Of a stretch of 64,000 bases of DNA, positions 20,689-60,473 are shown piece by piece; the stretch's first letter is position 1, and every line of letters starts with the position of its first letter. The translations under genes were made by a program, and so were the position numbers. The notes under the pieces were generated by a model. The model worked only from the letters and a program-made list of their open reading frames with translations, searched no databases and was not told the DNA's origin. This DNA is from Candidatus Culexmicrobium cathedralense (GTDB lineage Archaea > Thermoproteota > Methanomethylicia > Culexarchaeales > Culexmicrobiaceae), in contig JANZKC010000003.1 of assembly GCA_025061115.1 (NCBI GenBank), positions 199,170 to 263,169 on the forward strand. Direction: 5' to 3'.

Positions 20689-22902
20689 ATGGGAAGGTGG
20701 AGTCCATTAAATAAGCCCAGCCCAGAAGAGGCCAGGCAATTCCTAGCTGAAAAAGGCTTCTTAATCGAAGTAAAATCTTTAAGTAATTCATTTAACGTAT
20801 ATAAGGTATTGCTGCACGGCCCAGATGGGAATCTCCATGAACAAAAGTGTGAGCACTTATCAGGCTATTCTCCAACAGCTATCATTAACTTTCTTAAAAG
20901 CTATAATATTAATGAAAATGACCTCCCTGATTTTTTAGCAGCCATATCCTCAATCATTGAAGCAATTTTACCTCAAAAGTTTAGGTTTGTGCTTGATGAT
21001 GGCACAATAATTGAGCCTGAAGCCAGTGATGGCTTAGCAGTCAACCCCGCAATGTTGTTTGTAAGACACGAAAATTTCACGATTGTAGGTGAATTAACTT
21101 ACCTTAAAAGTAAGGTGAAGATTCCTGATAAGCGAAGAGGTTTCAAGGAAATTATAGGTTATGAGCCTTTCCTAGTAATTGCGAGGTATGAAGGATCAGA
21201 AATTAAGAGGGATTTTAAGCCTTTGAGAAAGCTGGAATTTATTGATGTTGGAGACATCCCAGTTAGGTTAGATTGGCGCGGGAGGGCTTCAAGTCCTCTT
21301 AAAACCGTTATGAAGCTTGAAACAATTGGCGATTTCATGAAAGGTGCTATTTCTCCCCACTTCAAGGAGTTATTTGATGAGGCTCTAAGTAACATAAAGA
21401 AATTCATTGACTTTTGGTGGGATCAGCGCCTATATACTTTAACTGCAGTCTATTGTATGTCCACGTACTTTGCCGACTTCTTCACAGCATTTCCATTTCT
21501 CTACTTTTATGGTCCTCCAGGAACTGGAAAAACTAGGGCTGGCAAGACAATTACTTTAATGAGTAGAAGAGGCTTCATAGTAACTGATCCTACTGAAGCA
21601 TCCATTTACAGAACTGCTGAAGCATTCAAGCCTACATTCCTCTTCGATGAATCCATTATGCGCAAAGAGCTTTGGAAGCTGGTTAGAGCTGCATTTAAAG
21701 CTGGGGCTCAAATTCCGAGAGTAACTAAAGTTAGGGGTGAATACTTTGAATTATCATTTTTTGATCCATACTCACCGTACATTTTTGCAAGCACTGAAAC
21801 TCCTGAAGAGTTAGGTGGAAGTGAAGCAGACTTAACTAGAACTATCATAATAGTTATGAAATTTGGTCGAGATCCAAGTGGCAGAGATCCTGAACCTAAC
21901 GACTTTACAAGATTCAGAGAGAAAATGTACTTGGCAAGACTCACTCGAGCCAATGAAATCATTGAAGCAATAGAGAAAGTTAAATGTTTAGCAAAAACAC
22001 TTACAGGAAGAGAAAGAGAGGTTTGGCTTCCACTTCTATCTTTAGCGAGAGTTATTGATGAAAAAGTTTTCAATGAAATACTTAACCTCGCTGCAGAGCT
22101 TTTTGAGGCAAAGAAGCTAGAGCTGTATAGAGATGAAAGGCTGATAATTGAAGCACTAGAGCGGTTAATGATGGATGAAGCTCAAAAGAGCTTAGGAGAT
22201 GATCTTTTACTGCGTTTTTATGCGAAAGATCTCAATGCAATACTGAAGGACATTCTAGTTTTTGAGAGGCAAGAATTAACTGAAAAACAGTTTGAGCGAT
22301 TTTGGAGCACCAGGAGAATAGGTAAAATACTTAGTAGAATGGGATTCAAGGGCCGCCTATATAAGGGAATAAAAAGATATACTTTAACTAGAGCAGAGCT
22401 CGAGGACCTAAAGCAAAAGTACTTTGCCTTGAGCTCCAGTGGAAATGAGGGTGGATTTGGTGGGTTTGGTGTATTTTCTGGAGAAAGGGGTACCTCTGAG
22501 AAAAACCCACCCCAGCATGAAGCAGAACCATCAGAAATAATGATGGAGGGTGGATTTTCTGAAACCCTACCCCTTTTCCGAAAAAACCCACCAAATCCAC
22601 CAAACCCACCCTTCATTCATGGACAAATATCAAAAAGCATTCCTCACCACATCCTCACACTAAAGAAGATTAAGCGCGGCGAGATCGATATTCCTGAAGA
22701 AGCGCTTCAAAGAGTTTACACTTATATTGAGAGGAATCTCCCACTTCAAAGAGACTTAATTAAGTTTATAGAGCTTAATGAGCTGCCAAAAGAGGCGCTT
22801 ACAGTTCTCATCATGAAAGGCAGGGTAATTGAAAGAAGACTTCCAAGCGGTGAGGTGAGGCTTCTTCCATCCTACGTTTTGGGAGGATGGAGGTGTGGGT
22901 GA
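20689..22902 (+). CDS. Replication helicase-like P-loop ATPase (DUF3631/SF3-like Rep)
   Basis: FPFLYFYGPPGTGKT Walker A, PTEASIYR, PTFLFDE Walker B, R..EVW.PL; C-terminal wHTH-like region. Confidence 0.75.
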   Translation: MGRWSPLNKPSPEEARQFLAEKGFLIEVKSLSNSFNVYKVLLHGPDGNLHEQKCEHLSGYSPTAIINFLKSYNINENDLPDFLAAISSIIEAILPQKFRFVLDDGTIIEPEASDGLAVNPAMLFVRHENFTIVGELTYLKSKVKIPDKRRGFKEIIGYEPFLVIARYEGSEIKRDFKPLRKLEFIDVGDIPVRLDWRGRASSPLKTVMKLETIGDFMKGAISPHFKELFDEALSNIKKFIDFWWDQRLYTLTAVYCMSTYFADFFTAFPFLYFYGPPGTGKTRAGKTITLMSRRGFIVTDPTEASIYRTAEAFKPTFLFDESIMRKELWKLVRAAFKAGAQIPRVTKVRGEYFELSFFDPYSPYIFASTETPEELGGSEADLTRTIIIVMKFGRDPSGRDPEPNDFTRFREKMYLARLTRANEIIEAIEKVKCLAKTLTGREREVWLPLLSLARVIDEKVFNEILNLAAELFEAKKLELYRDERLIIEALERLMMDEAQKSLGDDLLLRFYAKDLNAILKDILVFERQELTEKQFERFWSTRRIGKILSRMGFKGRLYKGIKRYTLTRAELEDLKQKYFALSSSGNEGGFGGFGVFSGERGTSEKNPPQHEAEPSEIMMEGGFSETLPLFRKNPPNPPNPPFIHGQISKSIPHHILTLKKIKRGEIDIPEEALQRVYTYIERNLPLQRDLIKFIELNELPKEALTVLIMKGRVIERRLPSGEVRLLPSYVLGGWRCG
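22445..22616. repeat. About 70-bp imperfect inverted repeat with GGTGGRTTT iteron-like units (putative origin)
   Basis: 22445-22512 is nearly the reverse complement of 22548-22616; encodes the GGFGGFG and NPPNPPNPP peptides. Confidence 0.75.
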
Positions 22903-58746: not shown

Positions 58747-59550
58747 GTGGATAAAATGCATAATAAAGTTTTGCTTCAAGAAATGACTTGGGAGGAAGTT
58801 GAGGAAGCAATTACTAGAAGTGGAGGAGTCATTTTAATTCCAATTGGAAGTATCGAGCAGCATGCTAGGCATTTGCCCGAGGGAACTGATACATATTGCG
58901 CAATTGGCGTTGCAGTTGAAGCCGCCAAGGAGACTGGGGCTGTTGTAGCTCCACCTTTATGGTATGGATGGAGCCCACAACACATGGCATATCCTGGTAC
59001 GGTTAGCGTTAAACCTCAGATTTTAATCGACTTAATAGTTGAAATATGCAAGTCACTCTCAAAGCATGGCTTCAATAAGATAATACTCGTTAATGGGCAT
59101 AGAATAAGCAACAATCCATGGATACAATTAGCAGCTGCAATAGCTAGTGAAGAAAGCAAAGCAAAGGTCGTTCCAGTAGATATAGCTTACATTGCTAGAC
59201 AAGCATATGATGAATTGGGATTCGGCCCATTAGGTCATGGAGATGAAGCCGAGACATCCCACATGCTTCACTTACATCCAGAGCTAGTTTACATGGAAAA
59301 AGCGTTTGACAAGTATGTAGCGAAGCAGGAGCTATACAATCCAGATCCAAGATCAACTGAAGATACTGTACTTTACACTCCAAGTCCACCTGAAGTAAAT
59401 CTTGCTAGGAAAGACGTAACTGGAGGTGGAAGTGGAAATCCAAAAGTGGCATCCAAGAAGAAAGGAGAAAAACTACACAAATACACTGTAGCTAAATTGA
59501 TAAGGCTAATTGAAGTTTTGAAGAAAAGAGAGAGTCGACTGGAACTTTAA
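58747..59550 (+). CDS. Creatininase-family amidohydrolase
   Basis: GSIEQH..HLP.GTD, NGH and GHG...ETS motifs. Confidence 0.92.
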   Translation: MDKMHNKVLLQEMTWEEVEEAITRSGGVILIPIGSIEQHARHLPEGTDTYCAIGVAVEAAKETGAVVAPPLWYGWSPQHMAYPGTVSVKPQILIDLIVEICKSLSKHGFNKIILVNGHRISNNPWIQLAAAIASEESKAKVVPVDIAYIARQAYDELGFGPLGHGDEAETSHMLHLHPELVYMEKAFDKYVAKQELYNPDPRSTEDTVLYTPSPPEVNLARKDVTGGGSGNPKVASKKKGEKLHKYTVAKLIRLIEVLKKRESRLEL

Positions 59551-59567
59551 ACCAATTATAGAATTAA

Positions 59568-59714
59568 TGCCCCAAGCCAGTCTAAGCCTAGGTCTATTCA
59601 AGGAACCTATGAGCATCACCAGCATCCTTGCGGCCGCCTCACGACGGCCACTTAAACACTGGATATTCTCATAGGTTACTTAAATTGGCCTAAGCCTACT
59701 TCTGGCTTGGGGCA
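59568..59714 (-). ncRNA. Unannotated rod-shaped ncRNA candidate (about 146 nt)
   Basis: 13-bp perfect terminal stem, 10-bp perfect inner stem, G-U-compatible helices only on the minus strand, TTTAAATA TATA box 28 nt upstream. Confidence 0.65.
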
Positions 59715-59734
59715 ATTTAATAAGGTGACCGCCC

Positions 59735-59749
59735 TATTTAAACTTATTC
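59735..59749 (-). promoter_or_regulatory. BRE/TATA promoter for the ncRNA candidate
   Basis: GAATAAG-TTTAAATA on the minus strand with canonical spacing to 59714. Confidence 0.55.
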
Positions 59750-59819
59750 ATCTTCAAAATTGTAAACAAGATTAATTGCGGACAAATTACATAAGACCAT
59801 AGCTTGAGCGCGTGAAATC

Positions 59820-60473
59820 ATGAACAAAATGATAAATTCATTCAAGACATAGGTAAGGTCCTTAAAAAGCTCTGCAAAAATCTCAAGGCAGCACTTTCCA
59901 TTCACTTGAAAAGCTTAAGGGGAAGCTTATTAAAATGCATGGCAAAGGACTGGTAAAAATCAATCACTCGGCAATGGAATTGGTGGTGTCTGAAGTTGAC
60001 GTTGAGCATCAATTAACTAAAAACTAATTTGCGACGCCTATGGAGTTAAAGGAGACGGCAAAACAATTTTTGAAATAGAAATAGGATATACTCCTCCAGA
60101 GCATGCATTAAATCCAACAACCTACATTAAAGCTAGAATTGCAAGCAAGATTGCCAGATACAACAACTATGCAAATAAATTTGCATTAGCATTCCCCCAA
60201 TTCTTCACGCCGGAAGTACCCATGATAATCCTTAAGCCACCGAGATTCAGAAGTCAGGAAGAGCTGCTGAAAGTAAAGAAGCTATGCGACTACTACCATA
60301 AAGATCCACCAATTAATTTAACTGAAATTCGCAATGCGAGGCTACATGAAATACTCATAATAAATGTTGATCAAGCGACAGCATATGAAGTAGATCCTGA
60401 GTTATATATTGAAATGTGCAATAACTATAGAAGTACATTGATGAAGCATCGCAATTCAATTGTTAGAATTTAA
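59820..60473 (+). pseudogene. Frameshifted conserved archaeal PD-(D/E)XK-like protein
   Basis: Fragments LVKINHSAMELV / EVDVEH / CDAYGVKG...EIEIGY.PPEHAL...ARIASKIARY lead into track ORF 60222..60473. Confidence 0.65.

Follow-up and report, generated by a model that had tools for sequence, protein, structure and literature searches.

To our knowledge, the circular RNAs of archaea fall so far into three kinds: those arising as intermediates or by-products, namely pre-rRNA and the introns of tRNA and rRNA; known RNAs that have been circularised; and a single rescued case, the SRP RNA of Thermoproteus. The latter is a permuted circle of 309 nt that replaces the missing canonical gene; it has its own TATA promoter about 26 nt upstream, and its leader and trailer form a bulge-helix-bulge (BHB) element that is cut by EndA and ligated into a circle, with the junction in a terminal loop (PMC4731332). 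The RNA described here resembles it in having its own TATA promoter, and the same BHB cleavage, ligation and terminal-loop junction are predicted for it, whereas the predicted circle is 114 nt long and has no SRP homology, and the canonical SRP RNA is present. The other close systems are the archaeal BHB introns and circular pre-rRNA intermediates, represented by tRNA introns, the cbf5 mRNA and the HVO_1309 5′ UTR (PMC6379350, PMC7714728, PMC12558985, PMC3326292). A circular Sulfolobus ncRNA of 68 nt, with no assigned function, is also listed in PMC3326292. With the BHB introns our RNA shares the 3-4-3 geometry, purine-rich bulges, a short inner helix and the EndA and RtcB route that would be expected. 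In contrast to them, it has no host gene: its exons amount to a stem of 9–13 bp of variable sequence, and it is the "intron" that carries the conserved structure. Unlike the tRNA-Trp intron with its C/D boxes, it gave no match to such boxes in Rfam. The BHB route itself is already known; what seems new, judging from Rfam and the literature searched, is a host-less gene family that would use it, together with its link to a neighbouring protein.

Two further systems share parts of this organization. Y RNAs have paired ends, a conserved basal element and a variable apical domain, and are encoded beside a protein gene (Ro60). Paired ends, conserved base, variable apex and an adjoining protein gene are all found here, but the fold of the neighbour is restriction-endonuclease-like, the conserved base reads as a splice motif, and Ro60/TROVE was absent from five of five genomes in a search whose control matched in 2 of 14. 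In type III toxin-antitoxin systems, a nuclease-like protein is encoded beside a structured RNA. The nuclease-like neighbour and a tandem-duplicated pseudoknot domain in one RNA subtype recall this arrangement; in contrast to it, the RNA possesses a promoter of its own, in divergent or convergent orientation, the protein is single-copy and also occurs without a nearby RNA, and no PHROG match is convincing.

The window analysed here is the whole 64,000-nt stretch of Candidatus Culexmicrobium cathedralense DNA. The minus strand of 59560–59730 folds into a single rod of 147 nt (59568–59714) at −95.9 kcal/mol (z −10.5, none of 200 shuffles being as stable). The plus strand of the same region reaches −73.1 kcal/mol (z −7.8), and this weaker fold indicates that the G-U strand asymmetry reported in a preliminary description of the locus is real. 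The helices listed in that description are all present in the sequence, and the TATA box that it placed 28 nt upstream is TTTAAATA, whose first base (59742) lies at precisely this distance from the rod start at 59714; the box is unchanged in the four of four same-family genomes. The AU-rich internal bubble that it also proposed is predicted to form a helix of 7 bp that has a single mismatch at either end, and this stretch is paired in three same-family homologues, within a helix of 12–13 bp in G003 and G002 and within an unbroken 17-bp helix in G004. No Rfam family matches the rod at E values up to 10, nor any part of the window at gathering scores, and 15 related loci yielded only generic hairpin matches far below threshold; the tRNA search at the rod was negative. 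Many dispersed copies had been named as a sign of a mobile element, and the rod is present in one copy in the whole genome. The preliminary description contained neither the basal BHB nor the circle predicted as its product, and did not connect the RNA with the gene next to it. The features of the RNA locus are the following.

59568..59714, minus strand: precursor hairpin RNA, a rod of about 147 nt, from the fold and comparison with homologues
59564–59715, minus strand: match of the covariance model R1, whose training set includes the window sequence
59735..59749, minus strand: archaeal promoter, with the TATA box TTTAAATA at 59742–59735 and purine-rich BRE-like bases upstream
59702..59714, minus strand: 5′ arm of the outer stem, pairing with 59568–59580; would be a spliced-out exon
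59568..59580, minus strand: 3′ arm of the outer stem, from the fold and two-sided changes in the alignment
59695..59701, minus strand: 5′ half of the BHB, with central-helix strand AAGU (59701–59698) and bulge AG|G (59697–59695); predicted cut at 59696/59695
59581..59587, minus strand: 3′ half of the BHB, with central-helix strand GCUU (59587–59584) and bulge AG|A (59583–59581); predicted cut at 59582/59581
59582..59695, minus strand: predicted mature circular RNA of 114 nt, one end closed by a junction-formed GC-UUAG-GC hairpin in the circular fold
59628..59653, minus strand: apical hairpin with a GUGA (GNRA) tetraloop, lying below an AA/AA internal loop, from the predicted fold
59550..59567, minus strand: A/U-rich 3′ tail, a probable terminator; the U-tract is weak in the present genome

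A DNA search of 60 relatives gave one clear homologue, 70% identical and with compensatory changes, which adjoins an intact gene for a 219-aa protein, with transcription running the opposite way. With the protein of this gene as query, the best 80 of 394 loci retrieved belong to Bathyarchaeia, Brockarchaeota, Geothermarchaeales and Nitrososphaeria. When 83 loci were scanned for motif and fold combined, 40 were matched, one of them at a false site, as against none of the 83 reversed controls. When 36 of these RNAs were aligned, 89.8% of the cells in the basal 22 pairs were paired, a level reached by none of 500 shuffles, and 18 of the 22 pairs showed changes on both sides, including 12 of 12 in the outer stem. 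The covariance model R1 matched 43 of 83 gene loci, 36 of which are its training sequences; the RNA is divergent from the gene in 42 of them and tandem in one. In total, 100 distinct RNAs were gathered over 315 loci, with no match in 150 reversed controls, defining a family of at least 100 sequences over the TACK archaea, whose stems covary and whose members share a U-rich tail and a TATA box at a set position. The sense strand is the better fold in 95 of the 100 RNAs, and a U-tract follows the stem on the 3′ side in 84 members versus 31 on the opposite strand. TATA-like words peak 40–49 nt upstream of the basal loop, with 96 matches in this interval versus 4–29 in each of nine other 10-nt bins (97 RNAs). 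Three features seen throughout the family, namely covariation, the placement of the promoter and the asymmetry between strands, support the earlier proposal of an undescribed archaeal ncRNA with its own promoter and selection on the minus-strand RNA. The rod is almost certainly a separately transcribed gene for such a small RNA and not a mobile palindrome, its transcription being deduced from these signals. No account of the RNA family was found in Rfam or in a literature search in which subscription journals were thinly represented; tables such as those of PMC3326292 may list a member.

Conservation across the family is confined to the base of the rod: the outer stem, RAGYAN and GCUU on the 5′ side, and RGGC, UUAGA and the outer stem on the 3′ side. 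Body length and apical domain vary, over a range of about 105 to 280 nt. In one Bathyarchaeia subtype, the apical loop pairs with a 3′ bulge to form a pseudoknot, which is 92% paired in the 33 domains kept (6 mis-anchored rows of 39 having been dropped), with two-sided changes in four of its five pairs and none of 500 shuffles comparable; in several genomes this domain is a tandem duplicate. The pseudoknot loop contains hammerhead-like words, which are not conserved. In the window's subtype, a 4-nt apical loop is kept in the four of four same-family RNAs (65–77% identity), as a GNRA loop in three of them, and an internal loop containing AA is found at the same place in all four. Among viral sequences there were 120 pattern matches, and R1 matched none of the 80 that were searched with their flanks; metagenomes gave at least 118 pattern matches, of which 80 were searched and 24 proved real.

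The basal element of the rod reads as a BHB splice motif. RAGY and GCUU can pair to form a central helix, which in the window consists of A-U, A-U, G-C and U-G pairs and is flanked by two 3-nt bulges on opposite strands. The motif used to collect the 100 family sequences contains BHB bases, and therefore the following counts are partly built in: the central helix is complete, with four of four pairs, in 93 RNAs; at position 1, A-U and G-U are found in 48 RNAs each, and at position 4, C-G in 75 and U-G in 20, so that the variable positions switch only between A-U and G-U and between C-G and U-G, in 96 and 95 RNAs respectively; and the first bulge reads ANG in 93 RNAs, its middle base being free, and the second AGA in 84. 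In the 36-sequence alignment, the BHB register is 99.1% paired and the central helix has 98.6% of its cells paired. Since the 3′ strand of the central helix never varies in the main family, two-sided changes are absent from this helix there. The inner helix h′ comprises two pairs (C-G in 98 and U-R in 91 of 100) followed by a bulged U, with a third pair in a minority, and thus falls within the range of 1–4 bp seen in the inner helices of the present genome's own tRNA-intron BHBs. The latter cost 0–6.4 kcal/mol above the predicted optimum; the family BHB register costs 5.3 kcal/mol on average, and another register, with a 6×5 basal loop, is preferred in 95 of 100 predicted precursors. Both registers are explained if one is that of the precursor and the other that of the product after cutting and joining. 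Indeed, a junction hairpin, in which GCU pairs with GGC around a UUAG loop, is predicted in 92 of the 100 family circles.

EndA cuts after the second base of a bulge. The cut positions predicted above combine this rule with the 3-4-3 geometry, as defined in PMC6379350. In its shape, the base of the hairpin thus matches what the tRNA-splicing enzyme cuts, and the RNA most likely matures into a closed ring of 114 bases. In the proposed route, a hairpin transcript of about 147 nt would be produced from a stand-alone gene by its own TATA promoter, its base would fold into the BHB, EndA would cut both bulges and RtcB would join the inner piece into a covalently closed rod of 114 nt; the freed GCU and GGC would then pair, capping the end of the rod with a UUAG tetraloop. 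The circle, rather than the short spliced exons, would be the product, because it has no ends to degrade and carries the lineage-specific tertiary elements. Two EndA genes and RtcB are encoded in five of five genomes. The steps of transcription, cutting and closure are drawn from sequence geometry and from enzymology known from PMC4731332, PMC7714728 and PMC12558985, and we consider cleavage and circularisation highly probable.

The gene next to the RNA encodes a protein that would be its partner.

59818..60473, plus strand: divergent partner gene of about 215 aa, a probable pseudogene; its PD-(D/E)XK-like fold is taken from the homologue in G003, which is intact

In the window, this gene is spread over three reading frames with a 24-nt deletion near 59992–59995, while the RNA is intact, and an Ile replaces an otherwise nearly invariant Thr; no second copy was found in the present genome. 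The protein has 3779 relatives, unnamed or hypothetical among the matches listed, and is single-copy and 51–68% identical across classes. It gave no match in Pfam, NCBIfam or PDB sequences, and the only PHROG entry, itself unnamed, was a weak match to 4 of 120 members, none convincing. The model of the G003 homologue (pLDDT 95) displays a restriction-endonuclease-like core with an added N-terminal helical hairpin, and the top rows of both fold searches have this same fold: SPO1766 (3dnx) with Z 9.4, XisH (2okf) with Z 9.0 and AF1548 (1y88) with Z 8.3, over 104–113 residues at 12–17% identity, the best of them being a middling match (Z 9.4 over 105 residues). The three share with the partner family the core fold and the acidic residues that are invariant in the latter, which differs from them by its E-x-E motif and the extra hairpin. 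No variation was seen at E71, D81, E94, E96, G98, K119 or Y123 in any of 95 proteins; D81 and E94 are thus retained, and position 96 is a Glu, so the motif is E-x-E rather than E-x-K. The invariant K119 may substitute for the active-site Lys.

A second type of BHB-closed RNA was detected beside the same gene. A BHB scan that uses no family sequence was run on the 67 gene loci lacking an R1 match and returned BHB-closed hairpins in 19 of 67 loci versus 6 of 67 reversed controls, the scan being noisy in G+C-rich DNA; the second type is therefore defined only from loci in which 8 of 8 outer pairs form and a TATA box lies upstream, of which there are 14, representing 9 distinct RNAs.

L034, L055, L057, L064, L065, L076, L154, L166, L167, downstream of the partner gene: second-type RNAs, BHB-closed, each with its own TATA box

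Seven of them are Terraquivivens-type records and two belong to family f33. They are multi-arm RNAs, downstream of and convergent with the gene, and their sequences are unrelated to those of the main family, with the same 3-4-3 geometry. Their central helices, CGGA/UCCG or CGGG/CCCG, represent a two-sided change between lineages. On ligation a GNRA tetraloop would form, and the predicted circles measure 157–190 nt. A model of this type, R2, gave one weak match in 40 genomes. At a separate locus (L162, G116), a 200-nt candidate structured RNA with three arms and a U-rich tail lies on the opposite strand, convergent, about 700–950 nt past the start of the partner gene; no BHB could be read at its base.

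The association of RNA and protein was counted in an even sample of 151 genomes, with the reservation that relatives do not count as independent cases and that incomplete assemblies lose linked loci jointly: the protein is encoded in 61 genomes and the RNA in 21 (one copy each), all 21 being protein-positive, and the RNA adjoins the protein gene in 20 of the 21. Within the window's class, 5 of 62 genomes carry the protein and all five carry the RNA. A match elsewhere in the genome was obtained for 14 of 37 protein-positive genomes that lack an adjacent RNA (12 at an E value of 1.6e-6 or better), some with two or three paralogues, versus no strong and two weak matches in 37 protein-negative genomes, one a short look-alike hairpin and the other lacking the motif. 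The paralogous RNAs of Bathyarchaeia genomes (L373/L385, L375/L386, L376/L387/L389 and L379/L388, two or three per genome) are of different subtypes and unlinked to the protein gene. An 80-nt hairpin at G022:C14:33960-34039 (L390) carries the 5′ motif, a near-match to the 3′ motif and an outer stem out of register, and the protein was not found in that genome. When two further type-1 and eight type-2 RNAs are added, 31 of the 61 protein-positive genomes have an RNA and none was found in about 30. The protein-positive lineages in which no RNA turned up include marine and soil ammonia oxidisers and Sulfolobales-like groups. The adjacency occurs in three arrangements, divergent, tandem (L032) and convergent (two lineages), while all other neighbours vary; no third conserved neighbour was seen among the 106 of 144 flanking proteins that were scanned.

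This linkage makes a physical partnership between the RNA and the neighbouring protein likely, and the circle would most probably bind the adjacent PD-(D/E)XK-fold protein. It might act as a duplex-mimicking regulator or scaffold of this protein, a role that we put forward tentatively and at less than even chances. Taken as a whole, the explanation that we favour on balance is that of a stand-alone gene giving rise to a BHB-made circle with a probable nuclease-fold partner. A broader proposal, to which we give not quite an even chance, is that of an old, dedicated class of TACK genes whose sole product would be a small circular RNA made by the tRNA-splicing machinery, forming an RNP with a PD-(D/E)XK-fold nuclease that is inhibited or directed by it; the BHB base and the protein would be held constant while the body is remodelled into a rod, a pseudoknotted rod, tandem domains or a multi-arm circle. 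Whether dedicated EndA substrates other than tRNA and rRNA exist is a question raised in PMC7714728, which a widespread circle-only gene family, if true, would answer. For the protein family, with its 3779 matches and thousands of unnamed members, the link to such a circle would be a first functional lead.

The adjacency could instead be inherited synteny, the same BHB-made circle being served by another factor and the protein not being a partner. Such a situation would be consistent with the pseudogene beside an intact RNA in the present genome (G000), with the several whole clades of a quick protein tree in which the protein is encoded and the RNA was not detected, and with the genomes in which up to three paralogous RNAs coexist with one protein. 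It fits poorly with an adjacency that persists through three arrangements while the other neighbours change, and with unlinked RNA copies that occur almost only in protein-positive genomes, and we consider it unlikely, though deserving of attention.

The circle itself would be dispensed with if the RNA were a linear rod in the manner of Y RNAs, never circularised, with the invariant 6×5 basal loop as a protein-binding site. The predicted preference of precursors for the 6×5 register would follow naturally, as would the invariance of the GCU/GGC pairs in 36 of 36 sequences, but the latter is already accounted for by the junction hairpin of the circle. Moreover, the wobble pairing of the variable loop bases with GCUU and the unrelated sequences of 3-4-3 geometry beside the same gene are left unexplained by a linear rod, and Ro60/TROVE is absent as stated above. 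We regard this possibility as improbable and retain the BHB-made circle.

The loop strands UAGA and AGYA resemble the YAGG and AGCR strands of SRP helix 8 (64 SRP RNAs parsed of 74) in swapped order, which is the topology of the permuted Thermoproteus SRP RNA (PMC4731332), and a permuted, SRP-derived helix-8 mimic that binds or titrates SRP54 was thus considered. The resemblance stops at the last base of YAGG, a G in 63 of 64 SRP RNAs versus an A in 91 of 100 RNAs here, which also have an extra purine. Each of the 21 RNA-positive genomes also encodes the canonical SRP RNA, R1 matches none of four SRP loci, and splicing would destroy the helix-8-like loop, making this origin very improbable. 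In the 90%-complete genome G004, the canonical SRP RNA was not found and is probably unassembled. A link to SRP helix 5 was also tried and rejected: the 3′ motif is identical to a helix-5 strand in 2 of 64 parsed SRP RNAs, with one more at a single mismatch, and this is attributed to chance.

The 6S-like geometry suggested initially, for which the rod shape and its own promoter speak, would make the RNA a decoy of RNA polymerase. The family lacks a conserved central bubble, its conserved element being at the base of the rod, its length and apical domain extend over the wide range given above and no 6S match was obtained in Rfam; such a function is highly improbable. Long terminal complementarity and the two or three copies in several genomes notwithstanding, a non-autonomous mobile element (MITE) or DNA palindrome is largely refuted by the single copy seen in each of the 21 RNA-positive genomes of the even sample, flanking direct repeats in only 4 of 100 RNAs, the better fold of the sense strand and the covarying pseudoknot of one subtype.

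Two candidate classes of the basal element and of the RNA were examined and rejected. The look of tandem G-A pairs recalls an L7Ae kink-turn, but the bulge would be UUA and the inner helix displaced, and the BHB register fits the same pairs better. The guide-type RNA offered as an alternative in the preliminary description is not borne out for H/ACA or C/D RNAs: ACA follows the hairpin in 1 of 100 RNAs, no Rfam guide family of either kind matches and there is no long single-stranded variable segment.

Elsewhere in the window, positions 22448–22612 hold another long fold-back, about 165 nt in length, whose repeated arms are G/U-rich; its minus strand folds at −94.8 kcal/mol (z −7.7) and R1 does not match it. 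At G000:C2:258860-259571, ARAGORN predicts a tRNA-Phe with a span of 712 nt, whose intron seems to hold a coding sequence, possibly broken, with what we take to be LAGLIDADG-like motifs.
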